Under the pieces are notes generated by a model that worked only from the letters and a program-made list of their open reading frames with translations, was not told the origin of the DNA and did not search any database. The position numbers and the translations under genes were made by a program. Positions 33,140-52,203 of a stretch of 64,000 nucleotides of DNA are shown here, piece by piece. Source of the stretch: Flavobacteriaceae bacterium (GTDB lineage Bacteria; Bacteroidota; Bacteroidia; Flavobacteriales_C; GCA-002722245); contig CAXRIN010000046.1 of assembly GCA_964230605.1 (NCBI GenBank), forward strand, positions 11,793 through 75,792, written 5' to 3'. Positions within the stretch are counted from its first letter, which is position 1; each line of letters starts with the position of its first letter.

Positions 33140-33909
33140 AGGAGATACATATTGTTAAGGATATTGATGAACTTTTGAATGATTCGGCAAAGCTAGAGTC
33201 GTTAAAAGAGAAAATAGTTGATGACGATTTAGTAGTAATAAAAAACGTGATTGATAAAAGTTTAATTGCTGAACTAAAGAGTTATTTAGTGAATGTTGGA
33301 AGATCTTCTTTTCCTAATTATGAAAAAATAGAATTAGGAGCAAAAGATTTTCATAGGATTAATAATAATGATCCAAGAGCATATGTTAAAGGAACTTTTC
33401 ATCAGTTTGTGTTTTATCCTTGGAATCAGAATTATTTTAACCTTTTTGATCAATTTAAGAAAGCATACAGGGTGAAAAATTTATTAAGTAACATTGGTGA
33501 AGAGGAATTTCTTGATCCAAAGGAAGGTGATGATTTTACTGCAAGAATTGCTTTTCAGTTTTATCCTAAAGGAAATGGATTTTTAAATGAACACAGAGAT
33601 CCAGTAGATAGACACCAAATAGTTGTGCCAATATTAATCATGTCTGAAAAAGGAGATGAGTTTAATGAAGGTGGAGTGTATTTCAGATATGAAGATGACG
33701 AAAAAGTTTATGTAGAAGATTATACTCAAATTGGTGATGTAGCTTTCTTTAAAGCTTCTTTAAGACATGGAGTTGAGGATATTGATCCGGGAACTGATTC
33801 TAATTGGTTAGACTTTAAGGGTAGATGGATGGGCTTACTCGCTGTGAATAAATTTTTCAATGTAACATCTGTAGCTAATGCTGTTGATTTGAATTCCGAA
33901 AAAAAATGA
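33136..33909 (+). CDS. hypothetical protein, possible second Fe(II)/2OG-oxygenase (cupin) family member
   Basis: NEHRDPVD (HxD-like) and ...LRHGVEDI distal His with a spacing reminiscent of 2OG oxygenases. No other recognisable motif. 4-nt overlap with neighbours. Confidence 0.3.
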   Translation: MKEIHIVKDIDELLNDSAKLESLKEKIVDDDLVVIKNVIDKSLIAELKSYLVNVGRSSFPNYEKIELGAKDFHRINNNDPRAYVKGTFHQFVFYPWNQNYFNLFDQFKKAYRVKNLLSNIGEEEFLDPKEGDDFTARIAFQFYPKGNGFLNEHRDPVDRHQIVVPILIMSEKGDEFNEGGVYFRYEDDEKVYVEDYTQIGDVAFFKASLRHGVEDIDPGTDSNWLDFKGRWMGLLAVNKFFNVTSVANAVDLNSEKK

Positions 33910-34826
33910 GTGTTCTTTCGTGGGAAAAATTAGGGTTGGTTTTAGCTCCTTCTCAGGAAGTTAAATGGATGACAACATTTGCTAGTAGTACAGCTGTAAA
34001 AGTAGTGGATGAAAAGGAAGGACTTATTGATATTTTTGTTACTGGAAGGGATGATATGAATCGGAGTCTTATTGGCTGTGTGAAGTTTAATGTTTTTAAG
34101 CATGAGGTTATCGAAATCTCTAAGGAAGAGGTCCTTAATTTAGGTCCATTAGGAACTTTTGATGAAAACGGACAATCTTACCCTTCGTATTTATTTGATG
34201 GGGATAAAGAGTGTTTGTACTACACAGGTTGGTCTCCAAGTGTACTTACTCCTTTTCAGAATTTTGTAGGTTTAGGAGTAAGAAAAAAAGGAGAGGAAAA
34301 GTTTTGCAGATATTCAAACGCTCCTGTTTTAGATAGAAATAATGAAGATTATTCATCTATTGGTTCCTGTTATGTTTTAAAAAGTCAGGATCATTTTAAG
34401 ATGTGGTATACTGCATTTAGAAATTGGGAAAAAACAGAAAATGGTACAAGGCACTATTATCGAATAAAATATGCTCATTCAAAGGATGGCGTGAATTGGG
34501 AAAGAGATAATGCTGTATGTATTGATTTTGAAAGTGAAAATGAGTACGCAATAGCCAGACCAACTGTTTTTGAGTTGAATGGAGAATATAATATGATGTA
34601 TTGTTACCGTGGTGATAAATACAGATTAGGTTATGCTACTTCAAAGGATGGTATTAACTGGACAAGGAGGGATAATGATCTTATGTTTGTAGGGGATGAT
34701 TTAGAATTTGATTCATATGAAAGGAATTATCCAACTGTGTTTAGCTTAAACGGAGATCATTATTTACTTTATTCCGGAAATAATTATGGCGAAGCTGGCT
34801 TTGGAATAGCAAAACTTATAAAATGA
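33906..34826 (+). CDS. five-bladed beta-propeller protein of the GH43/GH32/GH130 superfamily (glycosidase/phosphorylase-like)
   Basis: Repeated blade motifs SKDGVNWER, SKDGINWTR and W-Y-T... patterns typical of this propeller clan. 306 aa, no signal peptide. Confidence 0.35.
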   Translation: MSVLSWEKLGLVLAPSQEVKWMTTFASSTAVKVVDEKEGLIDIFVTGRDDMNRSLIGCVKFNVFKHEVIEISKEEVLNLGPLGTFDENGQSYPSYLFDGDKECLYYTGWSPSVLTPFQNFVGLGVRKKGEEKFCRYSNAPVLDRNNEDYSSIGSCYVLKSQDHFKMWYTAFRNWEKTENGTRHYYRIKYAHSKDGVNWERDNAVCIDFESENEYAIARPTVFELNGEYNMMYCYRGDKYRLGYATSKDGINWTRRDNDLMFVGDDLEFDSYERNYPTVFSLNGDHYLLYSGNNYGEAGFGIAKLIK

Positions 34827-35602
34827 TACCATTATTTGACAGTCTTACACATCCTACTTTACAAGGAAATTGGCTTGATAGAGATACCGTAGCTACTTTT
34901 GAAGATTTGAAAAATCAAATGGATAAGAGTAATGTTTCTTTTGCTATAGCATGTGGCATAAATGGAAATGCTTACTCTCATGAAAGGTATTATTTAGAAT
35001 CAACTAAAATTAAGGGGCTCGTTCCAATTGCAAGATTAGATATGTCTGTTAAAGACATTGAGAAAGAAATTGAACGAATTTCCGAAATAGGTTTTAAAGG
35101 AATAAAAATTCATCCTAGGTTTGAAAATTTTGATTATTCAGAAGATATATTAGCAAGAGTCTTTATAAAATGTCAGGATTTAGGGATTGTTGTTCATTGG
35201 TGTTCTTTCTATTATTCTAAAATAGAGAATTACCCAAGTTTTGATCCTTATTTTTCTATAATAAGAACATTGAAAAAAGCTCCAAAAACTACATTAGTAA
35301 TTGTACACGGTGGGGTTCATGATATTATGAAATATGCTGAATTAGCAAGGTTTAATGATAATATTTTAATTGATTTATCTCTTACGCTTTTTCAGTATCG
35401 AAATACAACTCATTACCAAAATATTATCTTTCTTCTATCTAAAATTGACCGGAGACTTTGTCTGGGGTCAGATCATCCAGAAGTAAGTTTAATGCAATTA
35501 AGAGAGCAGTTTGATGAGTTTTGTGCTATGGATATACCAGTAGAAAAACTTTGGAACATTGGTATTCGAAATATTTCCAAAAAATATAATATTGAAATAT
35601 GA
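34823..35602 (+). CDS. amidohydrolase-2 (TIM-barrel metal-dependent hydrolase) family protein
   Basis: N-terminal FDSLTHPT (FDxHxH-like, degenerate) and C-terminal GSDHP motif typical of the Amidohydro_2 family. 259 aa. Confidence 0.45.
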   Translation: MIPLFDSLTHPTLQGNWLDRDTVATFEDLKNQMDKSNVSFAIACGINGNAYSHERYYLESTKIKGLVPIARLDMSVKDIEKEIERISEIGFKGIKIHPRFENFDYSEDILARVFIKCQDLGIVVHWCSFYYSKIENYPSFDPYFSIIRTLKKAPKTTLVIVHGGVHDIMKYAELARFNDNILIDLSLTLFQYRNTTHYQNIIFLLSKIDRRLCLGSDHPEVSLMQLREQFDEFCAMDIPVEKLWNIGIRNISKKYNIEI

Positions 35603-36801
35603 AAATTGCATTTTTAGGTGCTTCGGGAACTCAGTTATCGCCAATACAATATGCAGTTAGTAAAGGGTATGAAACAATAACTATTGATAATATTCCTTCT
35701 AATCCAGGACATCAACTTTCGGATAAGTATTTTAATGTTAGCATTACAGATAAGGAGAAGGTTTTAGAGATTTGCAGAACTGAAAATATTGATGGTGTTG
35801 TAGGATATGCTTCTGATTTAGCAAGTATAACCCAGGCATTTATAGCTAAAAAATTATTTTTAGTTGGTTCGGGAATTGAAACAAATTCAATTTTAGTAAA
35901 TAAAGATAAGTTTAGAGAATACTTAAAACAAGAAGAGCTTCAGGATATCTTTTTTCAAAAGATACATTTAAATGAGTTTGATAATTTGTTTGATATTGTA
36001 AAGTCGTTTCCAGAATCACATAAATTAATTATTAAGCCAACAGATTCGGCAGGGTCAAAAGGTGTTTATATTTTTAATGCTGGTGATTTTGATCAGGCTA
36101 TAGCAAAGGAAGCGTTTAACTTTTCAATATCGAAAACAATTATTATCGAAAGCTTTTTGGAAAAGCTTAAACCTCAGGTTTGTGGAGATGGATTTATGTA
36201 TGATAATAAATTGGCTTTTATAGATTATGGAGATGGTTATTTTCATGATTTTGAAAAATCTCCTGTTCCCTATGGAGAAACTTTTCCAGGGACACACTCA
36301 CCAGTGATTTATCAAAAAATAGGAGAAAAACTGGAAGAGATATTATGCAAATTGAATTATCAGGGACCGTTTAATTTTGATGTTTTTGTTTTAGCAAACG
36401 GAGAGATTTTTATTAATGAAATAGGACCAAGAAGCGGAGGGAATTTTATACCTGATATAATTGGATTGAAAAATGGATTTGACTTTGTAGGAGAAGTAGT
36501 TGAGTTCTTTTTGGGTAGGAAACCTAGCTTTCCTGAAGTTAATAACACTAGAGGTGTAGGCTCTTATATGATTCATAGTCATAATGAAGGTATTTATAAA
36601 GGAGTAATCCTACCGGACTCTTTAATGGTAAATGTGGTGAAAAAAAGGTTATTTATTAATCCTAATGATAAGGTTACTATGTTTCATTCGGGAAATCATT
36701 CTATAGGTAATTTAATATTGGAATTTACTTCTGTTAAGGACTTACCAGAGGTATTTAAAAATTTTTATGAAAGGATAGAAGTTCAGCTGTTAGATATTTA
36801 A
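35599..36801 (+). CDS. ATP-grasp domain ligase (carboxylate–amine ligase-like)
   Basis: 400 aa. Pre-ATP-grasp Rossmann-like N-terminus (KIAFLGASG). Central ATP-grasp features (IIKPTDSAGSKGV, E..I..EIGPRSGG). Confidence 0.5.
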   Translation: MKIAFLGASGTQLSPIQYAVSKGYETITIDNIPSNPGHQLSDKYFNVSITDKEKVLEICRTENIDGVVGYASDLASITQAFIAKKLFLVGSGIETNSILVNKDKFREYLKQEELQDIFFQKIHLNEFDNLFDIVKSFPESHKLIIKPTDSAGSKGVYIFNAGDFDQAIAKEAFNFSISKTIIIESFLEKLKPQVCGDGFMYDNKLAFIDYGDGYFHDFEKSPVPYGETFPGTHSPVIYQKIGEKLEEILCKLNYQGPFNFDVFVLANGEIFINEIGPRSGGNFIPDIIGLKNGFDFVGEVVEFFLGRKPSFPEVNNTRGVGSYMIHSHNEGIYKGVILPDSLMVNVVKKRLFINPNDKVTMFHSGNHSIGNLILEFTSVKDLPEVFKNFYERIEVQLLDI

Positions 36802-36925: not shown

Positions 36926-37789
36926 ATGTCGGAATCCAAGTGGACTGAAATTATTTTCCCAAAGAGGTCTTTAGGAGCACTAAATTTAAAAGAGTTATTT
37001 AAGTATAAGGATCTTATTTTACTTTTTGTAAAGAGGGATTTTGTAGCTTATTATAAACAAACAATTTTAGGTCCATTTTGGTATTTACTTCAACCAATAA
37101 TTCAAACAGTTATATATGCTTTAACTTTTGGAGCTGTATTTAATGTTAAAGAAGGTACGAGTATACCTTCGTTTTTATTTTTCTTGTCGGGAAATGTTAT
37201 GTGGTGGTATTTTGCTCAAAGTTTAGTGAAAACATCGAATACTTTTACTGAAAATGCTCATATATTCGGTAAGGTTTATTTTCCTAGGTTAACAGTTCCT
37301 GTGTCTGTTTTGATATCTAATATGATAGGGTTTGGAATCCAGTTTTCATTATTTATTGTAGCGTATCTGTTCTTTATTTTTGGAAAAGGAATGGATTTTT
37401 ATCCAAGTATTAAAGGGTTGTTATTTTTTCCCATAATTATTCTTAATATGGCAATATTAGGACTTGGATTAGGTTTGATAATATCTTCGTTAACAACAAA
37501 GTATAAGGATTTTAAACATTTTGTAGGATTTGGAGTACAGTTATTGATGTTTGCGTCTCCTGTAATATTTCCTTTACAAGTAGCTGAAAGTAAGTTTGGA
37601 GCGTTTGCTAAATTGATCCAATATAATCCGATGACACCAATTATTAGAAGTTTCAGAGCTTCGTTTTTTCCTGATTTTGTATTTAATTACGAGGATTTAC
37701 TGTACAGTGGAATATGTGCGGTAGTATTTTTCTTATTTGGCGCCTTTTTGTTCAATAAGACGGAGCAAAACTTTATGGATACGGTATAA
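36926..37789 (+). CDS. ABC-2 type polysaccharide export permease (Wzm/KpsM/NodJ-like)
   Basis: 287 aa. 6 TM segments with the ABC-2 arrangement. Immediately followed by the Wzt ATPase. Confidence 0.8.
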   Translation: MSESKWTEIIFPKRSLGALNLKELFKYKDLILLFVKRDFVAYYKQTILGPFWYLLQPIIQTVIYALTFGAVFNVKEGTSIPSFLFFLSGNVMWWYFAQSLVKTSNTFTENAHIFGKVYFPRLTVPVSVLISNMIGFGIQFSLFIVAYLFFIFGKGMDFYPSIKGLLFFPIIILNMAILGLGLGLIISSLTTKYKDFKHFVGFGVQLLMFASPVIFPLQVAESKFGAFAKLIQYNPMTPIIRSFRASFFPDFVFNYEDLLYSGICAVVFFLFGAFLFNKTEQNFMDTV

Positions 37790-37790
37790 T

Positions 37791-39083
37791 ATGAGTAATG
37801 ATATAGCAATAAAAGTAGAAGGATTATACAAACAATACCGTCTTGGAGTTATTGGAGCGGATACTCTAAAAGATGATTTAAAACTTTTATGGGGAAAAAT
37901 TCGAGGAAAGTCAATATCTGATTTGTATAATATTGATTCCAACGATAGAATGGTTGGTAATTCCGAATATGTATGGGCTCTTCAGGATATAAATTTTGAA
38001 GTAAAAAAAGGAGAGATTTTAGGGATTATAGGGAAGAATGGAGCCGGGAAATCAACACTGTTAAAGGTTTTGTCAAAAGTTACTGGTCCAACTAAAGGAT
38101 CAATCAAGGTAAATGGAAGGATAGCATCATTATTAGAAGTCGGTACCGGATTTCATCCAGAATTAACGGGGCGTGAAAATATTTTTCTTAATGGCGCCAT
38201 TTTGGGAATGAAAAGAGCTGAAATCAAATTGAAATTGGATGAAATTGTTGATTTCAGTGGAATAGGAAAATATTTAGATACACCAGTAAAAAGATACTCC
38301 TCTGGTATGAAGGTGAGATTAGGGTTTGCTGTTGCAGCGCATCTTGAACCTGAGATTTTAATTGTTGATGAGGTACTTGCTGTTGGTGATGCTGAATTTC
38401 AGAAGCGTTGTATCGGTAAAATGAATGACGTTTCAAAAAATCAGGGGAGAACCGTATTGTTTGTCAGTCATAATATGAGTTCTGTTATGGAACTATGTGA
38501 TAGAGGTTTGTTGATGAAGAACGGAACAGTAGCTCAAACAGGAGCCATTTCTGATATAATTCCAGCGTATTTGAATTCTTTTAAAAGTGAATTTAAAACG
38601 AAAGATTTATATCAGGTTCAAACTCGAACAGGAAATGGGAATATTGTGTTTTATCAATATGATTTATTGGATATTGATGGGAACTCAATTGATTTTGCTC
38701 TTAGTGGACAAAAATTAAGGTTTCATTTACGGCTGAAGGTTAATAAACAGGAAGATTATAAAAGGATTCATTTATCAATGAAATTTGTTGATGAAAATGA
38801 TGTGTCTCTTTTCCATGTATCAAATTCTGTTTCAAATGGTAAAGAATTTGAAGTAGTTCAAGGGAAGGAATTTCTAGATGTATTTTGTGAAATTGAAAAA
38901 CTACCGCTTCAGCCAGGAATTTATAGTTTTCATTTATTTTGTAGTGATTTGCAGAAGGTCTTTGACGAAATCAATTTTGCAGGTGAATTGAAAGTTGAGG
39001 GGGGGAATTTCTTTTCAAGCGGGAAACTTCCTGCTAAGGATTTAGGAACCTTTTTAGTTGAAAATAATTGGATAATTAAATGA
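37791..39083 (+). CDS. ABC transporter ATP-binding protein (Wzt/KpsT/NodI-like) with C-terminal carbohydrate-binding (Wzt-C-like) beta-sandwich extension
   Basis: Start MSNDIAIKVEGLY (internal Met of the tracked ORF; 1 nt after the wzm stop). Walker A GKNGAGKST, signature YSSGMKVRL, Walker B ILIVDE. ~190 aa beyond the NBD, as in Wzt proteins that recognise a terminal glycan modification. Confidence 0.85.
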   Translation: MSNDIAIKVEGLYKQYRLGVIGADTLKDDLKLLWGKIRGKSISDLYNIDSNDRMVGNSEYVWALQDINFEVKKGEILGIIGKNGAGKSTLLKVLSKVTGPTKGSIKVNGRIASLLEVGTGFHPELTGRENIFLNGAILGMKRAEIKLKLDEIVDFSGIGKYLDTPVKRYSSGMKVRLGFAVAAHLEPEILIVDEVLAVGDAEFQKRCIGKMNDVSKNQGRTVLFVSHNMSSVMELCDRGLLMKNGTVAQTGAISDIIPAYLNSFKSEFKTKDLYQVQTRTGNGNIVFYQYDLLDIDGNSIDFALSGQKLRFHLRLKVNKQEDYKRIHLSMKFVDENDVSLFHVSNSVSNGKEFEVVQGKEFLDVFCEIEKLPLQPGIYSFHLFCSDLQKVFDEINFAGELKVEGGNFFSSGKLPAKDLGTFLVENNWIIK

Positions 39084-40213
39084 TTATGAAAGGAAAAAAT
39101 GTTATTATTTTAACAACCTCTTTCACACATGGTGGCGCCGAAAAACATGGGCTATTATTAGCCGATTATTTTAAAAATTCTCTTAATCTTAATGTAGAGT
39201 TTTGGGCCTTTAGGGCCGGAACTAAGGTTTTGAGTGATCAAGCTGAAGGTTTAGGTATTCCAACAAAAGTTATTGGTGCCCCGCCAAGAGTTGGGAGATA
39301 CTTGGGAAAAATTCATAAAGCAAAAGCGGTTAAGGTATTTAAGGATTTTAATCCTGACGTAATTATCGCTTTAAACAGAGAGGCGAATTTATATATAGCA
39401 AATATTGGAAAGCTTACAGGAGCTAAAAGTTTAGTTTGGTCAATTCAAACAGCGTTTGATTGTGAGGACCTTAATGAATCTGAAATTAGATCATTAAATA
39501 ATATTGATCTATTCTTATCAAACTCACAACATGGAATTAAATACATGAGAGATAAGTTCGCTTTGCCCTCTGATAAATTTCATTTTATTAAAAATGGATT
39601 TAGCATGGAAATAATTGAGAATAGTAAGGTTGATTACAGGGCTTTAGTAGGAGCGAATGAAAATGATTTTCTTATCACCATGGTAGGCCATATAGAGGAT
39701 AGAAAAGACCATCTTTCACTTATAAGATCTATTAAACCTTTGAAATCTAAACTATCTTCAAAAGGAATAAATCCTGTTCTTATTTTAGCTGGTAAGTTAG
39801 GAACAGATATTGAAAAGTTAATTGCAGAGACTATAGAATTAGGAGTTTATAGAAATGTTAAGTTTTTGGGGCCCATCAAGAATGTGCCTGATCTGTTGAG
39901 AAATGTTGATTTATACGTTATGTCATCAGTTGTTGAGGGTATGCCAAATGCTGTGATAGAAGCAATGCATTATGGATTACCTATTGTTGCGAATGACGAG
40001 GCAGGTAATATGGAGGCGTTAGATTATAATAACAGAGATTTTATAGCTGAAAGTAATAATCCTGAAAGCTTAGCCGAAAAAATGTCATTTTTAATTTTAA
40101 ATAGAGATAAAGCAATAGAACTAGGGAAAAGGAATGAAGAATATGCCCGAAAGAATTATACGAGTGATAAACTAGGTTCTGATACTTGGAAGGTAATTTC
40201 AAAAAGTATATAA
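39080..40213 (+). CDS. glycosyltransferase family 4 (GT-B)
   Basis: 377 aa. C-terminal GT4 motif EGMPNAVIEAMHYGLPIVAND. Confidence 0.7.
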   Translation: MIMKGKNVIILTTSFTHGGAEKHGLLLADYFKNSLNLNVEFWAFRAGTKVLSDQAEGLGIPTKVIGAPPRVGRYLGKIHKAKAVKVFKDFNPDVIIALNREANLYIANIGKLTGAKSLVWSIQTAFDCEDLNESEIRSLNNIDLFLSNSQHGIKYMRDKFALPSDKFHFIKNGFSMEIIENSKVDYRALVGANENDFLITMVGHIEDRKDHLSLIRSIKPLKSKLSSKGINPVLILAGKLGTDIEKLIAETIELGVYRNVKFLGPIKNVPDLLRNVDLYVMSSVVEGMPNAVIEAMHYGLPIVANDEAGNMEALDYNNRDFIAESNNPESLAEKMSFLILNRDKAIELGKRNEEYARKNYTSDKLGSDTWKVISKSI

Positions 40214-40219
40214 TTTGAT

Positions 40220-42091
40220 ATGTGCGGAATTGCAGGGGTAATTGCTGGTGATGGAGAGAAAGTTTCAAGAGACTTTTTAACCGAATTGGCGAAAACATTA
40301 AATCATAGAGGTCCGGATTCTTTTGGAATTGTAAATAAAGAAAATGTAGGTTTAGTTCATACGAGGCTTGCAATAATTGATTTACATAATGGTCAACAAC
40401 CAATATTCGACGAGTCAGGGAGATACGGTTTGGTTTATAATGGGGAGCTCTATAATTACAAAATCCTTAGAAAGGAATTAATTGGTAAAGGTTATAAGTT
40501 CGACACTAACTCGGATTCTGAGGTTATTTTAATATCATTTATTCATTGGGGGAAAAAATGTGTTGAAAGATTCCGCGGTATGTTTGCTTTTGCTGTGTTT
40601 GATTTTGGAAAAAAGAGTGTTTTTCTTTCAAGGGATCATATAGGAATTAAACCTCTTTGCTATTATAATAAAGATGGTAAGTTTGTTTTTAGTTCAGAAT
40701 TACAAACATTCAATAAGCTATCTTCAATAAAAAAGTCGCTAAATTTAGGTGCATTAGATAATTACCTATGGTTATCTTATATTCCAGCTCCTAAATCTAT
40801 TTATAATGAGGTTCAAAAGTTACCTCCAGCCCATAGAATGGAAGTTTCTTTTGAGGGAGAGATTAAATACGTAGAGCGATATTGGGACGTGAAATATGAA
40901 CCTGATAATTCTCTTACTTTTAATGATTGGATAGATTTTACGCATGAGAAAATAACTGAAAGTATTAAGATGCATCTCGTCTCAGATGTTGGGTTTGGAG
41001 CCTTTCTTTCTGGAGGTATTGATTCGACACTTGTTGCATCGTATATGTCCGAATTGGCTTCAGAACAGGTTAAAACTTTTTCAATTGCGTTTGATGAGGC
41101 AGCTTTTAATGAAATTGATTACGCAAAAGAAGCGAGTGAAGTTTTAGGGTTGGATCATACTTTTAAAATAGTAAAGGCGGATGTTATTGAAATGCTACCG
41201 AAAATAGTTGAATTATATGGAGAACCATATGGGGATAGTTCTGCTATGCCAACATTTTATGTTTCGGAATTGGCTAGAAAAGATGTTAAAATGGTGCTCT
41301 CTGGAGATGGTGGAGATGAGGCTTTTTTGGGCTATAATAGATATAAAGTTTGGGATAAGAAACTAAGGACTAGATTAGGTGTGTCCAAACTTAAGGGTAT
41401 GTTTTTACCTATTGCACACAAATTAAACCCTGATAGATATAGTTCTTTATACCCTAAGGCAACTGCAAAGTCATTTCTCTCAACAATTGACTACATTGCT
41501 GAGGATAGAAGATATTTACTTTGGAAAGACGATTATCATGAATATATTTCCAATCATTGGAAAGATATCGAAGAAAAAATAAAGGTTAAAAAGAGATTAA
41601 ATAATTATAATAAAGGACAATATATAGATTTGCACAGCTATTTACCTTATGACATTTTAAATAAGGTTGATATTGCTAGTATGGCAAATAGTTTGGAAGT
41701 AAGAACTCCACTGGTAGACAAAGATATTTTTGAATTTGCAGGAAAAATACCTCCTAATTTTAATTTACAGAAAAAAAATGGAGTTTTAGAACCTAAGTTT
41801 CTGTTAAAGAAACTACTTGAGAAAAAATTTAGCGATAAGTTTATTTATCGACCGAAATCTGGTTTTAGTTTACCCTTCGATATTTGGTTTAATCCAAATA
41901 ACGGAAAGCTATCTAGCTATATTAGAGAGAGGTTGCTAGATCCTAATGCGAAAATAAATTTGTTTTTTAATTCAAAAGCAATTACTAATATGGTTAATTC
42001 TACTTCAAATAGTGGAGGTACTTCATATAGTGGATCTATTTGGTTACTTTTATTTTTGGAAGAGTGGTTGGAACAAAATAGGATTGATTAA
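40220..42091 (+). CDS. asparagine synthase (glutamine-hydrolysing)-family amidotransferase, copy 2
   Basis: MCGIAGVIAG N-terminus. SGGIDST PP-loop. 623 aa. Divergent paralogue of 16370..18253. Confidence 0.8.
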   Translation: MCGIAGVIAGDGEKVSRDFLTELAKTLNHRGPDSFGIVNKENVGLVHTRLAIIDLHNGQQPIFDESGRYGLVYNGELYNYKILRKELIGKGYKFDTNSDSEVILISFIHWGKKCVERFRGMFAFAVFDFGKKSVFLSRDHIGIKPLCYYNKDGKFVFSSELQTFNKLSSIKKSLNLGALDNYLWLSYIPAPKSIYNEVQKLPPAHRMEVSFEGEIKYVERYWDVKYEPDNSLTFNDWIDFTHEKITESIKMHLVSDVGFGAFLSGGIDSTLVASYMSELASEQVKTFSIAFDEAAFNEIDYAKEASEVLGLDHTFKIVKADVIEMLPKIVELYGEPYGDSSAMPTFYVSELARKDVKMVLSGDGGDEAFLGYNRYKVWDKKLRTRLGVSKLKGMFLPIAHKLNPDRYSSLYPKATAKSFLSTIDYIAEDRRYLLWKDDYHEYISNHWKDIEEKIKVKKRLNNYNKGQYIDLHSYLPYDILNKVDIASMANSLEVRTPLVDKDIFEFAGKIPPNFNLQKKNGVLEPKFLLKKLLEKKFSDKFIYRPKSGFSLPFDIWFNPNNGKLSSYIRERLLDPNAKINLFFNSKAITNMVNSTSNSGGTSYSGSIWLLLFLEEWLEQNRID

Positions 42092-42140: not shown

Positions 42141-43052
42141 ATGAAGTCATTATTTATTATAGGATGCCCGAGGAGTGGAACAACATACCTTTTAAGGTTG
42201 TTGGCTTCAAATCAAGAGTTTGCCTGGATAACAAATGAATTAAATAACAATCCTAAAGAATACAATCTATCTAGTCGATTAAATAAATATTCGGGGTCTT
42301 TTTGGAGAAAAAAGCGCTATTTAAACCATGGACAAGGCTCTGGAAAATATCCTTTTTCAGTTGAGCCATGGAAATTTTGGAATACTCATTTTGAGTATTT
42401 TCAATGGAATAAAGGTTTTTCTGATGTACCTGTAAATGCTTTGCCAGAGCATAATTCCCCGAAAGTTATACAAGATGTTCGTAACGGTGTTGAAGAGATA
42501 TTAAAGCACTCAGGAAGACATGCCTTTCTAAGTAAATATACTGATTTCCCAAGGGTTAAATTACTTTTGGAAGCCTTTCCAGAAGCAAAGTTTATCCATC
42601 TGGTAAGAGACGGTAGAGCTGTAGCGAATTCATATTATAAAAAAATTAAATCAGGTGAATTTAATACTTCAAAAGAAGAGTCTAATTGGGTTTCTGCTTG
42701 GCCGAAAGATTGGCAAGAAGAGTATCAAAGCATTGATAATAAGCTTTTAGCTTTTACTTTATATCAATGGAAGTTTTTTGTGGATCAGATTATAGAGGAG
42801 TTAAAAGAAGTAGAGCAGGAAAGAGTATTAGAAGTAAGATATTCAGATTTAGTAAGTGGTACGAGAAAAACTGTGGAGAGGATCATGGACTTCATAGATT
42901 TACCAATTGATAAGTCGATGGATTTCTTTATAGATCATCTTCCTGGGCATGATATGAATTATAAATGGAAAGAGAAATTGTCTGAGGATGAAAAATCTCT
43001 TTATAACTTTATACTTAGAGAAGAAAGATTTATACAATTTTTGGACAATTAA
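42141..43052 (+). CDS. sulfotransferase-family protein (PAPS-dependent, P-loop 5'-PSB + 3'-PB motifs)
   Basis: 5'-PSB-like GCPRSGTTYL. 3'-PB-like HLVRDGRAVANS. 303 aa, cytoplasmic. Confidence 0.6.
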   Translation: MKSLFIIGCPRSGTTYLLRLLASNQEFAWITNELNNNPKEYNLSSRLNKYSGSFWRKKRYLNHGQGSGKYPFSVEPWKFWNTHFEYFQWNKGFSDVPVNALPEHNSPKVIQDVRNGVEEILKHSGRHAFLSKYTDFPRVKLLLEAFPEAKFIHLVRDGRAVANSYYKKIKSGEFNTSKEESNWVSAWPKDWQEEYQSIDNKLLAFTLYQWKFFVDQIIEELKEVEQERVLEVRYSDLVSGTRKTVERIMDFIDLPIDKSMDFFIDHLPGHDMNYKWKEKLSEDEKSLYNFILREERFIQFLDN

Positions 43053-46147: not shown

Positions 46148-47095
46148 ATGGAGGTATATGTTGAATTCCCGGAAACTACATTAACCAATGCTATTTTGGA
46201 AGAATGCTACGCTGAAATAGATTTCAAAAGAATAGAAAAAAAATTGGGAATTATTTCAAGAAGAGTAGTGAAGGATGAAACGGCCCTAGATTTAGCTTTG
46301 GAAGCTTGTAGGGAGATAGATAGAGCCGATCTTGGTGAAATAGATTTTGTAATTTATTGTACTCAGTCGCCAGAATACTTTTTGCCATCAACGGCTTGTA
46401 TAATACAAACAAAATTAGGTTTGAAGGATAGTTGTGGTGCTTTCGATTATAATTTAGGATGTTCAGGTTATATATATGGTTTAGCGATGGCTAAGTCGTT
46501 TATTATAAGCGGAGTTGCTTCTAAGGTACTTTTGGTTACTGCAGAGACATATACTAAATATATTCATCCTTCAGATTGGTCAAATCGAGCTATTTTTGGA
46601 GATGCTGCAACTGCATCTGTAATAGGGAAAGATGATATTGATAAAATAGGGGAATTTGATTTAGGAACAGATGGAAAAGGTGCAGAGAACCTAATTATTA
46701 AAGGGGGAGCAGGAAAAGCCAATTTTCATCAGAATTTTGAAAGAGAAAATTGCTTTTATATGAATGGTTCTGAAGTATTTAAATTTACTTTGGAGAATGT
46801 ACCTATAACAGTGAATGAATGTTTAAAGAAAAATAACAAATCAATAGATGATATTGATTTTGTGATTTTTCATCAGGCAAATGCTTACATGCTGAAGAAT
46901 TTAAGAAAGAAAATAAGTGTCCCAGAGGACAAATTTTATGTAAATGTTGAAACAGTAGGAAATACTGTATCTAACACCATTCCTGTAGCTTTGAAGGATT
47001 CACAGGATAGAGGTTTGATAAAGTCTGGCGATTGTGTACTTTTGTGTGGATTTGGAGTAGGTTACTCTTGGGGGACAACAATAATTACAATATAA
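46148..47095 (+). CDS. 3-oxoacyl-ACP synthase III (FabH-like KAS III), dedicated copy
   Basis: Active-site Cys in YNLGCSGYIYGL, His in VIFHQAN, Asn in VGNTVSNT. 315 aa. Confidence 0.8.
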   Translation: MEVYVEFPETTLTNAILEECYAEIDFKRIEKKLGIISRRVVKDETALDLALEACREIDRADLGEIDFVIYCTQSPEYFLPSTACIIQTKLGLKDSCGAFDYNLGCSGYIYGLAMAKSFIISGVASKVLLVTAETYTKYIHPSDWSNRAIFGDAATASVIGKDDIDKIGEFDLGTDGKGAENLIIKGGAGKANFHQNFERENCFYMNGSEVFKFTLENVPITVNECLKKNNKSIDDIDFVIFHQANAYMLKNLRKKISVPEDKFYVNVETVGNTVSNTIPVALKDSQDRGLIKSGDCVLLCGFGVGYSWGTTIITI

Positions 47096-47098
47096 CAC

Positions 47099-47335
47099 AT
47101 GAATAAAGAATCATTTTTCAAGGAGATAGAAGAACTATTAGAGTTAGAAGGTGAATTAGAAACAAACGCTGATACTAGTATTGAAGATATACTAGAAATT
47201 GATTCTTTAGCACATATTACACTTATTTCCTTTGTTAAGGATGAAATAGGAGTGGAGCTAAAAGCTGAAGACTTTTCTGAATTTGAAACTCTTGCTGATT
47301 TGGTAAGCAAAATAGGTGAGGATAAATTCAATTAA
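47099..47335 (+). CDS. acyl carrier protein
   Basis: 78 aa, acidic. Phosphopantetheine-attachment motif EIDSLAHI. Confidence 0.8.
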   Translation: MNKESFFKEIEELLELEGELETNADTSIEDILEIDSLAHITLISFVKDEIGVELKAEDFSEFETLADLVSKIGEDKFN

Positions 47336-48090
47336 TGCTCAGTTTTACAAATCATAAAATTTTAATAACCGGAGCTTCATCGGGCTTAGGTAAAGCTGTG
47401 GCTGAATTATTAAATTCTTTAGGTGTTTATACCGTTTTATGCGGTAGAAATGAGGAGAAATTAAATAATATAAAAAACTTACTAAGTGCCCCTGAAAAAG
47501 CTAATGTTTTAGTGGTTGATTTTAATGATAACGTTTCGATTAAATCATTCTTAAAAGTTAGTGTTGAAAATTCTGGTAAGTTCACAGGGTTTGTTCATTG
47601 TGCTGGAGTTGATATTACTAAGCCATATAAATTACTTAAGGAGACCGATTTTAACTTATTATATAAATTAAATATTACAACCCCGTTTCAGTTATCTAAA
47701 GAGTTAGTGAATAAATCTTTTTTTAGTGAAAATGGAGGGAGCTTAATTTGGATGAGTTCGGTGATGGGGACTTTGGGACAGAAAGGGAAAATAGCATACA
47801 CAACAAATAAAGCAGCAGTTGAAGGATTAATTAAATCTTATGCTTTAGAGTTAGCTCCCAGAAAAATAAGAGTTAATAGTGTTGCTCCTGGAATTGTAGA
47901 AACACCATTAACAAAAGATTTATTTTCTAAGTTATCTCTTGAGAGAGTTCAGGAAATTAAAAATATGCACCCTTTAGGGTTTGGAGCACCAGGTGATGTA
48001 GCGAATTTAGTTGCTTTTCTTTTAAGTGATCAATCCAAATGGATCACAGGAACTACTCATTTTATCGATGGAGGATATCATATTCAATAA
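47335..48090 (+). CDS. SDR-family oxidoreductase (FabG-like 3-oxoacyl-ACP reductase)
   Basis: TGASSGLGKAVA cofactor motif. Catalytic YTTNK (YxxxK). TAATG overlaps with both neighbours. Confidence 0.8.
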   Translation: MLSFTNHKILITGASSGLGKAVAELLNSLGVYTVLCGRNEEKLNNIKNLLSAPEKANVLVVDFNDNVSIKSFLKVSVENSGKFTGFVHCAGVDITKPYKLLKETDFNLLYKLNITTPFQLSKELVNKSFFSENGGSLIWMSSVMGTLGQKGKIAYTTNKAAVEGLIKSYALELAPRKIRVNSVAPGIVETPLTKDLFSKLSLERVQEIKNMHPLGFGAPGDVANLVAFLLSDQSKWITGTTHFIDGGYHIQ

Positions 48091-49034
48091 TGGAGGGGTT
48101 TGATATTGTAAAACTTTCGGATGAACATTTTAAGTTGCTATTGCCTCTTTACAGCAAAGCGTTTGGTCAATCTATGGATGAACATGAACTGAGAACGAAG
48201 TTTGATACCTTAAAGATTTGTGGAGAAAAAAATGTAGGTTTTATAGCACTGAATGAAAAAGGTGAAGCTGCAGCTTTTTATGGTGTATTTCCTTGTTACG
48301 CTATTAAAGGTGATAATCAGGTTTTAATAGCACAGTCTGGTGATACTATGGTTGACGCAAAATACAGACGAAAGAAATTGTTTGTAAAGTTGGCGGAAAC
48401 AACTTTTGAGTATTGTAGAGCTAAAAATATTAAGGCTGTTTTCGGATTTCCGAATATATATTCATTTCCAAGTTTTGTTAAAAAGTTAAAGTGGACTCAT
48501 ATTCATAACATTGTTAGTTATCAGTTAAGAGTTAAGTGTTTACCTTTTATTCGTATTAGAAAACTTTTTAAGTTGAAAGAAGACTTTTTTCTTAACTATC
48601 AATTAAGGTATTTAAGGAGGCAGAGTAAAAAGGTTAAAGAATACCATTCCATAAATCAAAATATTTCGAATTATACTATTAATAAAAACAAACAATTTAT
48701 TGAGTATAAGGCCTACTTTGAGAAATACTTTCTGAATCTTTCCGGTGTAAATGTTTGGGTAAAACCTAATGCTATGTTTTTGCTGGTTGGGGATGTTGAA
48801 GATTGTGACGAAGTTACTTTTGTTGGCGTACTTGATGAGTTAAAAAAGATAGCTTTCAGATTAGGAATTCCGCATATTAGGATCCAAATGTCACCTGAGA
48901 CAAAGTTGGAGACTATGGCTAAGAAGTATTTATATAAAATGGATAATGAATACCCTGCAGGTGGAATCTCCTTTGATAGTAACTTTAATATTCATGATTT
49001 ACGTTTTGTTTTAGCTGATTACGATACTTTCTAA
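48090..49034 (+). CDS. hypothetical protein, possibly GNAT/FemAB-like acyltransferase
   Basis: Start MEGFDIVKL (TAATG-coupled to the SDR stop). ~315 aa, consistent in size with Acetyltransf_6/FemAB-like folds. No unambiguous motif seen by eye. Assignment rests on context (ACP module upstream, NodB-type deacetylase downstream). Confidence 0.25.
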   Translation: MEGFDIVKLSDEHFKLLLPLYSKAFGQSMDEHELRTKFDTLKICGEKNVGFIALNEKGEAAAFYGVFPCYAIKGDNQVLIAQSGDTMVDAKYRRKKLFVKLAETTFEYCRAKNIKAVFGFPNIYSFPSFVKKLKWTHIHNIVSYQLRVKCLPFIRIRKLFKLKEDFFLNYQLRYLRRQSKKVKEYHSINQNISNYTINKNKQFIEYKAYFEKYFLNLSGVNVWVKPNAMFLLVGDVEDCDEVTFVGVLDELKKIAFRLGIPHIRIQMSPETKLETMAKKYLYKMDNEYPAGGISFDSNFNIHDLRFVLADYDTF

Positions 49035-50053
49035 TGTTACATAAAATCTTAATATCCCTTTTTTATCGTTTCCCTTTTCTAACTAAAAAAATTTTAAGAG
49101 GGAAAGGTTTTGTGTTTATGTTGCACCGAGTGCTACCTGCTGAAGAAAGGGGTTACGAATGGAATAAAAGTTTGGCGATTTCACCTGAAGCTTTAGAAAA
49201 ATGGGTGAGCTTTTTCAAACAAAAAGGGTTTGATGTTGTCTCTATGGATGAAGTTTACAGGCGAGTGAGGAGTAAGAAATCCAAGCCTTTTGTGGCATTT
49301 ACAATGGATGATGGGTACAAGGATAATTTGACTTATGGTTTGCCAATCCTTGAGAAGTTGAATATTCCTTGCACGATTTATGTTGCCAATTGCTTTCCCA
49401 ATAATCAAGCGATTTATTGGTGGTATTTTTTAGAAGAGTACATCAATGAGAATTCTAAAATAGACTTGACCCCACTTGGGATTAGTTATTCTTCCCACAT
49501 TAGTGATGAGAACAAAAAAAGCGTTTACGATGAGGTGAGAGAGTTATTGAGAAAGTCCACCTACGCGGTACATAAAAAATTTGCCCTTGAAATTTGTGGT
49601 ATCCAAGACCTCAATGCTTTGAACAATCGATTCAATTTGACTTGGGAGGAAGTACAGCAACTTTCGGAACACTCATTGATTACCATTGGTGGACATACTA
49701 AAAGTCATGTTAGTTTGGCAAATCAAACCAAAGAAAGCGCTAATACCGAAATCCAATTGGGAACAGAAGAATTGGAAAAAAAACTCAGTCAATCTATTCG
49801 CCACTTTGCTTATCCTTATGGTTCTTTAGATGATGTTAGTAATTCACTTTTCGACCCATTGGCGCAATCAGGCTACCAAACAGCTGTTTTAAACCATCCT
49901 GGAAGTATATTTTATGATGGCTCAAATCATCTTTTTCAAATTCCAAGAATGGGTTTATCGGATGAAACCTCTAGGGAAAGATTGAGTGAATTGATGGAAG
50001 GAAAACTTCATCTTAATTTCAATGGGGTTAAGAAGAGAATTATAAGTGGTTAA
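49034..50053 (+). CDS. polysaccharide deacetylase (NodB-homology, CE4) family protein
   Basis: Motif 1 FTMDDGYKDN (TFDDG-like), His motif GGHTKSH and further CE4-like spacing. 339 aa. Confidence 0.75.
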   Translation: MLHKILISLFYRFPFLTKKILRGKGFVFMLHRVLPAEERGYEWNKSLAISPEALEKWVSFFKQKGFDVVSMDEVYRRVRSKKSKPFVAFTMDDGYKDNLTYGLPILEKLNIPCTIYVANCFPNNQAIYWWYFLEEYINENSKIDLTPLGISYSSHISDENKKSVYDEVRELLRKSTYAVHKKFALEICGIQDLNALNNRFNLTWEEVQQLSEHSLITIGGHTKSHVSLANQTKESANTEIQLGTEELEKKLSQSIRHFAYPYGSLDDVSNSLFDPLAQSGYQTAVLNHPGSIFYDGSNHLFQIPRMGLSDETSRERLSELMEGKLHLNFNGVKKRIISG

Positions 50054-50110
50054 ATGCAACATTTTATTAATAAGCATATTTGATATAACTTCGCAGTCAA
50101 TTTCACAAAC

Positions 50111-51070
50111 ATGGCGGAAATAGAATTATCTATTATAATAGTAAATTATAAAACACCAGAGTTAACCTCAAAATGCATTCAATCCATTTTTGAAAATACT
50201 AGAGATCTAACTTTTGAAATTATTCTAGTAGATAACAATTCACAGGATGGGTCAAAAGATTTCATTCTCAGTGATTGTCCCAATATCTCATGGGTTCAAA
50301 TGGATGATAATGCGGGGACTTCAAGAGGTTACAATGCAGGCGTTAAAAGTGCTAAAGGGAAGTATGTTTTAATTCTTAATTCCGATACAGAATTAAGGGA
50401 TAATGCCATAAAGAATTCATTGGATTTTCATAAAAAGAAAGAGTCTGAATGTAAAGTAGGTTTAACCAGTTGTCAAATAAAAGGTTTTGATGGGGTCATT
50501 CAATATAATTCTAATCCTAACTTCCCTTCTGTTAAAAAATATCTAGCTAAGCATCCAGTATTGTATAAGTTTGGTGCAAGGGCGCCAAAGAATTTATCAA
50601 ATGAAGAGAAATTAACCTTGCACAAATCCAATCATGAGACATCTTGGATTGGTATTGCTTTTGGTATTATAAATAAGGAAATATTTGATAAAGAGGGATT
50701 GTATTTTGATGAAGATATTTTTATGTACTCTGATGAAGTGGAGTGGTGCTACCGTTTAAAGCAATTAGGGTATAGACATTTCTTTACAGCTGATTACACA
50801 ATTTACCATGTTAACTCTGGAAGTTCTGTAACCAATGAGTGGAGGTATGGTCAAATATTCCTCTCTGAATTAATTTACTTCTATAAAGTTAAAGGTAAGT
50901 TTTACTATAACCTGATTCTTCGGTCATTGAAATATTTTTTTAAGAAGGACAAAACAACAGCTAATCAAATCGAAATAGATGTTGTAAAACGTTATGGGAA
51001 CAGAATTAAAGAAGAATATCAACCAAAAGTGAGTTCAGGTAAGACATACTTAAAATATGAGCTAAAATGA
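50111..51070 (+). CDS. glycosyltransferase family 2
   Basis: LSIIIVNYKTPELTSKCIQSI, LVDNNSQDGS and NSDTE (DxD-like) motifs. Confidence 0.75.
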   Translation: MAEIELSIIIVNYKTPELTSKCIQSIFENTRDLTFEIILVDNNSQDGSKDFILSDCPNISWVQMDDNAGTSRGYNAGVKSAKGKYVLILNSDTELRDNAIKNSLDFHKKKESECKVGLTSCQIKGFDGVIQYNSNPNFPSVKKYLAKHPVLYKFGARAPKNLSNEEKLTLHKSNHETSWIGIAFGIINKEIFDKEGLYFDEDIFMYSDEVEWCYRLKQLGYRHFFTADYTIYHVNSGSSVTNEWRYGQIFLSELIYFYKVKGKFYYNLILRSLKYFFKKDKTTANQIEIDVVKRYGNRIKEEYQPKVSSGKTYLKYELK

Positions 51071-52197
51071 AAAAAGTTTTAATTACAGGAGGTGCAGGGT
51101 TTATTGGGTCACATTTGGTGAACAAGATTCATAATGATTATGATATAGTTGTTTTGGATAATTTAAATCCGCAAATTCATGGAAAGGATAAAGATTCATA
51201 TACCTACAATTCAATAAAAGGCAAATGCGAGTTTTTTGAAGGTGATGTAAGGGATGAGTCTACCTTAAAAAGCCTCTTGAAGAACACTGATGTTTTGATT
51301 CATTTAGCTGCAGAAACAGGTACTGGTCAATCAATGTATGAGAATGCAAGATATGTTGAAGCAAATTGCTTAAGTACTTCCTATATTGCAGATTTTTTAG
51401 GGTCAAAAGAAAGCAAAATAAAGAAGGTAATTGTAGCTTCTTCGAGATCAATTTATGGCGAGGGAAAGTACAGGAGCAAAGAATTAGGAATAGTGTATCC
51501 AGACTCTCGTGAGGAAAAAGATATGGCTAATGGGGTGTTCGACTGTTTATGTCCGGTAAGCAGGGAGCCATTAGAGGTTTTGCCAACATCCGAGGACTCA
51601 AGAATTCACCCTATTTCAACCTATGGACTAACCAAGTTTTTTCAAGAGAATATTTTAGAGTCTACTTGTAACGCTTTGGGTGTAGATTTTGTAGGTTTAA
51701 GATTTCAAAATGTTTATGGTGTAGGTCAGTCTTTATCGAATCCTTATACTGGAATAATCTCAATTTTCTCAACAAGATTCAGAAAAGGGAAAGGAGTAAA
51801 TATTTTTGAAGATGGAAAAGAATCACGTGATTTTGTTTACATTGATGATGTAATTTCTTCTCTTGTAAGTTCAATAGAATATAAAGGAAAAAGTAGTCTT
51901 ATTTTAAATGTAGGAAGTGGTGAAATGACTACTGTCCTTCAGATTGCAGAAATATTAAAAGATAATATAAATCCTAACGTTTCTATTGAAATATCCGGAG
52001 CTTTTAGAAAAGGGGATATTCGTCATAACTATGCAGACCTTACTTTAATTAAGAAGGAATTTGGTTTTAAACCAACAGTTTCGATTAAAGATGGGCTTCG
52101 TAGGTTCTGTGATTGGATGTTGAATGAAGAGGAAGGAGAGGACAAATACGAAAAATCATTAAAAGAGTTAAAAGAAAAGAACTTGTTAAGTAAATAG
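51067..52197 (+). CDS. NAD-dependent sugar-nucleotide epimerase/dehydratase (extended SDR)
   Basis: VLITGGAGFIGSHL Rossmann motif. Catalytic YGLTK (YxxxK). 376 aa with insertions. Confidence 0.8.
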   Translation: MKKVLITGGAGFIGSHLVNKIHNDYDIVVLDNLNPQIHGKDKDSYTYNSIKGKCEFFEGDVRDESTLKSLLKNTDVLIHLAAETGTGQSMYENARYVEANCLSTSYIADFLGSKESKIKKVIVASSRSIYGEGKYRSKELGIVYPDSREEKDMANGVFDCLCPVSREPLEVLPTSEDSRIHPISTYGLTKFFQENILESTCNALGVDFVGLRFQNVYGVGQSLSNPYTGIISIFSTRFRKGKGVNIFEDGKESRDFVYIDDVISSLVSSIEYKGKSSLILNVGSGEMTTVLQIAEILKDNINPNVSIEISGAFRKGDIRHNYADLTLIKKEFGFKPTVSIKDGLRRFCDWMLNEEEGEDKYEKSLKELKEKNLLSK

Positions 52198-52203
52198 TGC
52201 TTT

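Follow-up and report, generated by a model that had tools for sequence, protein, structure and literature searches.

The stretch of DNA analysed here (the window) comprises 64,000 nucleotides of contig CAXRIN010000046.1 from a Flavobacteriaceae bacterium (assembly GCA_964230605.1, positions 11,793 to 75,792 of the forward strand). Two genes of the sulfotransferase family had been predicted in it from the letters alone, and both were found to be intact, ATG-started open reading frames (ORFs). The gene at 42141..43052 on the plus strand encodes a protein of 303 amino acids (aa), here called ST1, and the gene at 61852..62739 on the minus strand encodes a protein of 295 aa, here called ST2. Both lie among genes for surface glycans, and both proteins have the binding site for the sulfate donor 3'-phosphoadenosine-5'-phosphosulfate (PAPS) that is conserved in sulfotransferases.

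Alignment with the Sulfotransfer_1 (PF00685) and Sulfotransfer_3 (PF13469) hidden Markov models (HMMs) had been proposed as a check, and all four scores lie above the gathering thresholds of 22 and 27 bits, respectively. ST1 scored 91.5 bits against Sulfotransfer_3 (E=1.2e-25) and 53.9 bits against Sulfotransfer_1 (E=2.2e-14). The scores of ST2 were 34.6 bits against Sulfotransfer_1 (E=1.7e-8) and 31.8 bits against Sulfotransfer_3 (E=2.1e-7). NCBIfam holds no specific model for either protein; the NoeE model, whose cut-off is 500 bits, gave scores of 10.2 and 20.9, and these matches cover the P-loop region only.

The original prediction also named a 5'-phosphosulfate-binding loop (5'-PSB) and a 3'-phosphate-binding motif (3'-PB) in each product, and these could be aligned with the loops of solved enzymes and are invariant in the families. 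In ST1 the 5'-PSB reads G8-C-P-R11-S-G-T14-T15, is invariant in 21 family members, and its GCPRSGTT is in register with the GVPRSGTT of human TPST1/2. The 3'-PB reads L-V-R156-D-G-R159-A-V-A-N-S164, with the Ser eight residues on from the Arg; it is likewise invariant in the 21-member alignment, and its VRDGRA is aligned with the VRDGRA of TPST. The donor site is complete (R11, T14/T15, R156 and S164), and K132 is also invariant in the family alignment. Judging from the sequence, E75, which belongs to an invariant E-P-W motif, is a plausible candidate for the catalytic base; none of the alignments run matched it to the catalytic Glu of TPST. The AlphaFold2 model of ST1 has a pLDDT (predicted local distance difference test) of 91.3 and a pTM (predicted template modelling score) of 0.90, and its top 50 Foldseek neighbours in the Protein Data Bank (PDB) are all sulfotransferases. 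The best of these neighbours are TPST2/1, the sulfotransferase domains of CurM and OLS, and the mycobacterial Stf9 and Stf1. TPST1/2 are also the best solved-structure matches of the ST1 family profile (E=2e-12).

The family profile of ST2 matched, among solved structures, PDB entry 3rnl (1.5e-23) and HS3ST (2e-21). Its 5'-PSB, G12-M-P-R15-A-A-T18-T19, is in register with GVKKGGTR of 3-OST-3, and its 3'-PB, V-I-R97-E-P-A-D-W-T-I-S105, is in register with VVRDPVTRAIS of the same enzyme; the motif residues are invariant or nearly so in a family alignment of 36 sequences. The 3'-PB had been predicted from the string REPxD. The site was correctly placed, and the residues that define it are R97 and S105, not that string. 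The AlphaFold2 model, built from an alignment of seven sequences, reached a moderate pLDDT of 73.9. Among its top 50 neighbours in the PDB there are again only sulfotransferases, the best being the bacterial 3rnl and the 3-OSTs (TM-score up to 0.59/0.67 to 3-OST). Seven relatives of ST2 were found by a word-indexed search, and an exhaustive search gave 2,532 (E<=1e-3), of which 55 reach E<=1e-30. Hence the family as a whole is of considerable size, whereas the branch to which ST2 itself belongs is small.

Neither protein has a hydrophobic segment, a transmembrane (TM) helix or a signal peptide. The P-loop begins at residue 8 in ST1 and at residue 12 in ST2, which leaves no room for a signal peptide. 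Since hydrophobic segments are missing and the P-loop lies within 12 residues of the N-terminus, both proteins are assigned to the cytoplasm, as originally predicted. Chance motifs or pseudogenes were ruled out for both genes, the products being full-length and conserved, with invariant motif residues.

The ORFs of at least 100 aa in the window were scanned with the Pfam and NCBIfam models. Three glycan regions were recognised (loci A, B and C), which bears out the predicted position of the two genes inside glycan loci. The features are the following, GT2 and GT4 denoting glycosyltransferases of families 2 and 4:

10257-18253, minus strand: locus A, with Wza/Wzc-type (Wzy-dependent) export; WecA-type initiating transferase, RmlC, Wzc, Wza, GT4 and AsnB-type amidotransferase.
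31379-55689, plus strand: locus B, which contains Wzm/Wzt and ST1.
31379..36801, plus strand: head of locus B; ArnC/PgfS-like GT2 (31379-32326), PhyH dioxygenase, a 257-aa unknown protein, GH130-like protein (33906-34826), amidohydrolase and ATP-grasp protein.
36926..37789, plus strand: Wzm, ABC-2 permease of the glycan exporter (ABC2_membrane, 63.5 bits).
37737..39083, plus strand: Wzt, ABC ATPase (ABC_tran, 83.7 bits) with a C-terminal Wzt_C carbohydrate-binding domain at residues 295-421 (47.3 bits, cut-off 30.4).
39080..42091, plus strand: GT4 (39080-40213), then AsnB-type amidotransferase (40220-42091), directly upstream of ST1.
42141..43052, plus strand: ST1, sulfotransferase of 303 aa, Sulfotransfer_3 (PF13469), TPST/Stf/CurM-like.
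42988-44178: ORF of the GT4 downstream of ST1, likely ATG at 43057.
44165-45019: GT2; and 45071-46105, minus strand: GT4; both co-conserved with ST1, as is the GT4 at 42988-44178.
46148..55689, plus strand: tail of locus B; FabH, acyl carrier protein (ACP), SDR, GNAT, polysaccharide deacetylase, GT2, epimerase/dehydratase, MBOAT, an unknown 312-aa protein and AT3 acyltransferase.
47099-47335, plus strand: the ACP of the locus B tail, 78 aa, with a DSL motif.
55733..57159, minus strand: IS3-family insertion sequence between locus B and the ST2 module.
57270-64000, minus strand: locus C, in the gene order edge multi-TM protein, ST2, two EamA proteins, DegT transaminase, AT3, orphan membrane protein.
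57270-58880, minus strand: orphan multi-TM protein of 536 aa at the end of the ST2 operon.
58828-59910, minus strand: AT3 acyltransferase.
59911..61062, minus strand: DegT-family transaminase, dTDP-4-amino-4,6-dideoxygalactose transaminase (WecE equivalog, 498.6 bits, cut-off 375).
61198..61865, minus strand: two small 4-TM proteins of the EamA/SMR type (113 and 108 aa), matching best, in NCBIfam, ArnE and ArnF, which are the subunits of the flippase for undecaprenyl-phosphate-aminoarabinose.
61852..62739, minus strand: ST2, sulfotransferase-fold protein of 295 aa, HS-3-OST/NDST/3rnl-like.
62788..64000, minus strand: multi-TM protein of no known family, whose ORF runs past the end of the window.

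Relatives of ST1 number at least 580 in a word-indexed search of 5.8 billion proteins, with about 20 clusters above 48% identity, and almost all of them are metagenomic. Their gene context was drawn from exact-protein look-ups, a one-genome-per-species scan and a metagenome scan, and the loci so obtained are given here by L numbers. The closest ST1 protein in the one-genome-per-species collection is 63% identical and comes from a Crocinitomicaceae metagenome-assembled genome (MAG; L001/L007). The nearest relatives, together with a protease encoded in the window that bears a type IX secretion system (T9SS) sorting domain, assign the organism to Bacteroidota, close to Crocinitomicaceae (Flavobacteriales). 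In the window the gene order is Wzm-Wzt(Wzt_C)-GT4-AsnB-ST1-GT4-GT2, and the likely ATG of the next GT4 lies 4 nucleotides past the ST1 stop codon. Wzm/Wzt are found within 10 kb of the sulfotransferase gene in nine of the 11 informative loci on related marine Flavobacteriales contigs, the window included. These nine are the window, L001/L007, L013 (a Bacteroidetes MAG, sulfotransferase 36% identical), L087, L089 (fragmented), L093, L094, L102 and L112. Within the same distance Wzm/Wzt are absent from L088 and from L108, the latter with a short downstream flank; four further contigs with ST1-family genes were too short and were left out of this count.

Across the loci with shared context the sulfotransferases are 33-63% identical to ST1. 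L013 and L112 have the order Wzm-Wzt-AsnB-GT4-ST-GT4-GT2, which is nearly that of the window. In L093, L094, L095 and L098 almost the full gene set of locus B accompanies the ST1-family gene (three GT4s, GT2, FabH-SDR-GNAT, deacetylase, GT2 and MBOAT). Because this near-complete set recurs with ST1-family genes, ST1 is a core gene of a conserved polysaccharide type and not a passenger. The FabH-ACP-SDR-GNAT block (46148-49034) is conserved with ST1 in L089, L093-L095 and L098, and looks like a route to a short 3-hydroxyacyl group with which an amino sugar would be N-acylated. The multi-TM protein at the window edge (62788-64000) is 71-73% identical to a protein of 464 aa that flanks the same type of cluster in L087 (1856-3250), L093 and L095. 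It is far better conserved across these three loci than ST1 is (51-54%), and could represent a conserved part of the system that resembles a ligase, a polymerase or a GT-C. Locus A is set apart from the ST1 cluster, and a paralog of its amidotransferase is encoded at 40220-42091, beside ST1.

The ST2 gene is translationally coupled to the first EamA gene by a 14-nucleotide overlap, and the two EamA genes are coupled to each other by TAATG. In all six ST2-ortholog loci a gene for a small transporter or a flippase-like protein lies downstream of ST2, either directly or after a second sulfotransferase gene. In the window, L003 and L004 this is the pair of 4-TM EamA proteins of about 110 aa, which are orthologous across these loci. 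In L002 an LPG_synthase_TM membrane protein takes this place; in L005 and L006 the second sulfotransferase comes first, with LPG_synthase_TM after it. Also co-conserved with ST2 orthologs are DegT/WecE (at 41-55% identity), AT3, the GH130-like protein, PhyH and the ArnC/PgfS-like GT2. The last three adjoin ST2 orthologs elsewhere and in the window are found at 31.4-34.8 kb, about 23-27 kb away and on the opposite strand. The ST2 module thus appears to have been rearranged around the Wzm/Wzt cluster, as its partner genes are contiguous elsewhere and split here. There are, moreover, related metagenome loci that share locus B and have no ST2 module, with the window-edge membrane protein directly beside the GT2-deacetylase-GNAT block. 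For this reason the ST2 module, together with the IS3 element, looks like an accessory insertion, a variable segment of lower GC content.

These results indicate that ST1 and ST2 are probably soluble, cytoplasmic, PAPS-dependent enzymes of the sulfotransferase fold that belong to surface-glycan operons, each with a pathway of its own. The use of PAPS, the acceptors, the order of the steps and catalysis by ST2 are what we infer from the conserved donor site, the fold and the conserved gene context. The likeliest substrates of both enzymes are sugars linked to a lipid or a nucleotide, which would be sulfated on the cytoplasmic side prior to their export. Wzm/Wzt systems assemble their polymers in the cytoplasm, with undecaprenyl diphosphate as the carrier. 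The neighbouring GT4 and GT2 enzymes would accordingly build the glycan of locus B on this carrier, at the cytoplasmic face. ST1 would move sulfate from PAPS onto the glycan, within the chain or at its non-reducing end, and the sulfated glycan would then be exported by Wzm and the Wzt that bears a carbohydrate-binding module (CBM). For ST2 we read the genes as an Arn-like side branch, apart from the ST1 pathway. The WecE-type transaminase would make a dTDP-4-amino-4,6-dideoxyhexose, the ArnC-like GT2 is predicted to load the sugar on polyprenyl phosphate and the ArnE/F-like pair is predicted to flip the loaded sugar. ST2 would most likely sulfate the sugar unit at the cytoplasmic side before flipping. 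The sulfated surface glycan that had been suggested is thus the best-supported reading of the HMM scores, the alignments with solved structures, the predicted folds and the comparative genomics, with catalysis by ST2 less certain owing to residue K38.

Several points weigh against this reading. The solved relatives nearest to ST1 act on peptides (TPST), polyketides (CurM) and mycobacterial substrates, and not on polysaccharides. The Arn matches of the ST2 module are far below the NCBIfam cut-offs (ArnE/ArnF 33-42 bits against 92-99; ArnC 110 bits, full-length, against 529). ArnB reached 188 bits against 631, the transaminase being a WecE equivalog instead, so that the module resembles the Arn pathway and is not a member of it. 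No ArnT-like GT-C protein was identified in the window, where the two multi-TM proteins at 57270-58880 and 62788-64000 matched no model of Pfam or NCBIfam at a limit as loose as E<=1. The 536-aa membrane protein matched only itself among 5.8 billion proteins, and it showed no detectable relationship to the large membrane proteins that neighbour DegT in L002-L004.

The supply of PAPS is a further point of this kind. No cysD, cysN or cysC was detected in the 64-kb window by the Pfam scan of ORFs or with a CysC probe, nor in any close ST1 or ST2 locus. The probe, which served to provide leads only, was applied along with a motif scan to the window and to 169 fetched loci (2.1 Mb). Its sole match was in L044 (835-1359) of Tenacibaculum aquimarinum, where about 8.6 kb separate an APS kinase (cysC) homolog from the gene of a distant ST1 relative. 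This match indicates that the probe works and that some flavobacterial sulfotransferase loci carry cysC. The PAPS for ST1 and ST2 must be supplied from elsewhere in the genome, if at all, and the co-location of cysDNC with sulfotransferase genes has been termed a hallmark of sulfated-polysaccharide clusters (PMC11641403).

The remaining point concerns the active site of ST2. Past the P-loop the consensus of the ST2 family is P-x-R-K-E-x-N-Y-F, and in the profile search against solved structures its Glu falls on the Glu of E-P-H-F-F in 3-OST-3 and on that of K-K-E-A-H-F-F in 3rnl. The Glu of E-P-H-F-F is the catalytic base of the 3-OSTs (Glu184 in 3-OST-3). ST2 and its 15 closest cluster representatives read R-R-K-T-N-Y-F, with K38 in the column of this Glu. 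Among 86 scorable family members the column holds Lys in 16 (R-R-K), Glu in 69 (R-K-E) and Asp in one (R-K-D), with no insertion or deletion. With K38, ST2 may work differently or not at all. Eight residues are invariant in the Lys clade and variable in the Glu clade (R37, K38, H45, T69, T71, E132, D133 and R216), and the Lys clade keeps R15, T18, T19, R97 and S105 of the donor site. The active site of ST2 therefore looks remodelled, not decayed. A decayed enzyme was rejected as the leading view, given that the change from Glu to Lys is fixed throughout the subclade together with new invariant residues and that the PAPS site is intact. In L005 (5086-6862) and L006 (769-2545) a Lys-type (R-R-K) and a Glu-type (R-K-E) paralog are encoded in tandem. 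They are only 32% identical, from which distinct, non-redundant roles can be deduced.

The same observations lend themselves to another explanation, namely that ST2 is not an ordinary O-sulfotransferase. It would be either a non-catalytic partner or regulator that binds PAP(S), or an enzyme with a relocated base (H45/H56 or E132/D133), acting for example in N-sulfation of the 4-amino sugar made by WecE. The Lys found in all 16 closest cluster representatives, as opposed to Glu in 69 others and Asp in one, fits such a role, as do the clade-specific invariants, which indicate selection for a remodelled site, the tandem pairs of L005 and L006 at 32% identity, and the transaminase that constantly accompanies ST2 orthologs. 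However, the invariance of R15, T18, T19, R97 and S105 argues for retained donor binding and probably for catalysis. Moreover, the N-sulfotransferase domain of NDST, which the family profile matches, is generally known to keep the catalytic Glu, so that loss of this residue is no signature of N-sulfation, and the hexapeptide-repeat acetyltransferases of other ST2-ortholog loci would normally occupy the amine. On balance an atypical role for ST2 is considered unlikely.

For ST1 the acceptor is the matter at issue. A non-glycan acceptor, either a tyrosine as with RaxST and TPST or a lipid or quinone as with mycobacterial Stf3, would make its position in the glycan cluster incidental. TPST1/2 are indeed the best solved-structure matches of the family profile, and two relatives at 35-36% identity are named 'omega-hydroxy-beta-dihydromenaquinone-9 sulfotransferase' by JGI, but these product names are automatic. 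Menaquinone genes (MenF-like, MenD and MenA/UbiA) lie 11-14 kb upstream, and in L089 UbiA is about 4 kb from the sulfotransferase gene. ST1 is nevertheless flanked by glycosyltransferase genes and tightly coupled to them, and the same set of GT4, GT2, Wzm and Wzt is co-conserved with sulfotransferases of 33-63% identity in at least nine loci. Neither a gene for a RaxX-like peptide nor a peptidase-type ABC exporter was found nearby. A non-glycan acceptor is accordingly regarded as very improbable.

A refinement of the glycan reading is that ST1 terminates the chain, its sulfate being a cap at the non-reducing end that the C-terminal domain of Wzt reads as an export signal. In characterised systems with a CBM on Wzt, the polymer receives a methyl, methyl-phosphate or Kdo group at its non-reducing end; this terminal cap halts polymerisation and, recognised by the CBM, permits export (PMC11231755). 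The Wzt of the window carries Wzt_C above its threshold, and every intact Wzt beside an ST1-family gene has a C-terminal extension of about 150 aa. Six of the nine pass the Wzt_C threshold (window, L001/L007, L013, L047, L056 and L087), and L064 matches below it. The extension occurs across Bacteroidota (including a Cyclobacteriaceae MAG), in a cyanobacterium, in actinomycetes and on an archaeal-labelled contig. This co-occurrence, observed among Wzt proteins beside ST1-family genes, counts here as an association and not as an enrichment. Locus B of the window contains no methyltransferase or kinase, but methyltransferases, which are possible terminators, are encoded in the related loci L001 and L088. 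In Aeromonas salmonicida wzt, a sulfotransferase-domain gene and wbbB occur together and the repeat unit has no sulfate, which would fit a substoichiometric terminal sulfate (PMC4483657). Characterised terminators carry a coiled-coil ruler (PMC11231755), whereas ST1 is a bare catalytic domain of 303 aa, and a crude, rough heptad scan, a weak negative, gave no coiled-coil-like segment in any protein of locus B. The literature search, whose reach did not extend to the 2019 census of chain termination by Mann, Kimber and Whitfield (Glycobiology), returned no precedent for a sulfate cap or a sulfotransferase terminator.

The capping role for ST1 is thus held to be doubtful. If true, it would represent a new chain-termination chemistry for ABC-dependent glycans, achieved by a stand-alone enzyme without a ruler, and would extend the polymerase-terminator-CBM paradigm. 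A joint scheme, also a tentative one that we would not expect to hold, is that the sulfate cap set by ST1 ends chain growth and is read by the Wzt CBM, and that in parallel the Lys-clade ST2 might sulfate a polyprenyl-phosphate-linked 4-amino-6-deoxyhexose which is then flipped. Should ST2 act on such a sugar, it would provide the first sulfated lipid-linked sugar donor in bacterial periplasmic glycan modification.

With regard to known systems, ST1 shares with TPST1/2, and with the bacterial RaxST, the Arg-type loop G-x-P-R-S-G-T-T, the 3'-PB strand-loop V-R-D-G-R-A and the overall fold. Its identity to TPST is only about 17%, and the acceptor of TPST is a peptide tyrosine, whereas the genes around ST1 encode glycosyltransferases and an ABC exporter for glycans. 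Mycobacterial Stf1/Stf9 and the CurM/OLS domains form the structural subgroup of ST1 (Foldseek E about 1e-6, TM-score 0.48-0.55) and are likewise bacterial, cytoplasmic and PAPS-dependent; they differ in their acceptors and have no gene context in common with it. ST2 is closest to heparan sulfate (HS) 3-OST, the N-sulfotransferase domain of NDST and 3rnl of Alicyclobacillus; its family profile matches them (E=1e-17 to 1e-23), and both donor-binding motifs as well as the motif of the catalytic base line up. Unlike these enzymes, the ST2 clade has Lys for the catalytic Glu and Arg for the Lys of the 5'-PSB, and ST2 is soluble and coupled to small membrane transporters. The ST2 module has, like the Arn pathway (ArnB/C/E/F/T), by which lipid A is modified with 4-amino-4-deoxy-L-arabinose, a sugar 4-aminotransferase, an ArnC-like GT2 (elsewhere in the window) and a 4-TM pair of about 110 aa. 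The Arn pathway itself has no sulfotransferase, and no ArnA, ArnD or ArnT was identified in the window.

Very few of the sulfotransferases that act on bacterial polysaccharides have been assigned to a defined pathway, and to our knowledge none of these is from Bacteroidota. Sulfotransferases in bacterial polysaccharide clusters are nevertheless already known, and what is unusual here is the active site of ST2 and its gene partners. The rarity that the original prediction ascribed to such enzymes holds in relative terms but not beyond that, as relatives number at least 580 for ST1 and about 2,500 for ST2, and examples are known from cyanobacteria, Vibrio, Cobetia and rhizobia (PMC8205485, PMC11641403, PMC11766843). 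The same logic, a PAPS-dependent sulfotransferase in a polysaccharide cluster, applies to XssA/XssE of Synechocystis synechan, Vibrio sp. KMM 8419, Cobetia and the rhizobial LpsS/NodH, the comparison being by description only. Besides xssA/xssE, sulfotransferases have been described in cyanobacterial clusters of both the Wzx/Wzy and the ABC type (PMC8205485). The capsule cluster of Vibrio KMM 8419 has three sulfotransferases and its own cysDNC (PMC11641403), unlike the window, which moreover belongs to another phylum, the Bacteroidota. A capsule cluster with a sulfotransferase has also been reported for Cobetia (PMC11766843). Further documented cases are enzymes of rhizobia and of mycobacteria.

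The capped Wzm/Wzt systems (Escherichia coli O8/O9a, with WbdD in O9a, and Klebsiella pneumoniae O12, with WbbB, and O4/O7) share with the ST1 cluster Wzm, a CBM-bearing Wzt and a modifier beside the transporter that is not a glycosyltransferase (PMC11231755). Their caps are methyl, methyl-phosphate or Kdo groups added by proteins with coiled-coil rulers, whereas ST1 has no coiled coil and sulfate is no documented cap. The wb(salmo) cluster of A. salmonicida, an ABC-dependent O-antigen cluster, resembles the ST1 cluster in having a sulfotransferase-domain ORF directly beside wzt (PMC4483657). The protein is shorter (216 aa) and gammaproteobacterial, and is likened to ST1 by description. The role of this ORF was left open by its authors, and no sulfate is present in the repeat unit (PMC4483657).

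The conserved association of ST1 with Wzm and the CBM-bearing Wzt, the Glu-to-Lys clade of ST2 and the coupling of ST2 to an ArnE/F-like pair are the noteworthy features of the window. Sulfate esters alter the charge, hydration and cation binding of glycans and their recognition by phages, grazers and hosts, and bacterial sulfated polysaccharides are sought as glycosaminoglycan-like biomaterials. ST1 is tractable, being well conserved, with a confident model and a compact Wzm/Wzt cluster that recurs in marine Flavobacteriales, and is suited to heterologous reconstitution. ST2, whose clade has a remodelled active site and which is coupled to a putative flippase of lipid-linked sugars, is a tractable candidate as well.

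The IS3 element has imperfect (72%) terminal inverted repeats of 32 nucleotides, and its transposase is split over three ORFs, two with helix-turn-helix (HTH) domains (56751-57098 and 56467-56769) and one with the rve domain (55765-56376); with its transposase broken up in this way the element may be degenerate. The genes on either side of it are convergent, and it marks the point where locus B meets the ST2 module. The GC content of the window is about 32%, and that of the segment holding the ST2 module and the IS3 element is lower (0.28-0.29). Menaquinone genes (MenF/isochorismate synthase-like, MenD-like and UbiA/MenA-like prenyltransferase) are located at 27627-31230, directly upstream of locus B, and a UbiA gene precedes the related cluster in L089 too. 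These menaquinone and UbiA neighbours suggest that, in this lineage, the chromosomal position of the glycan locus is conserved.

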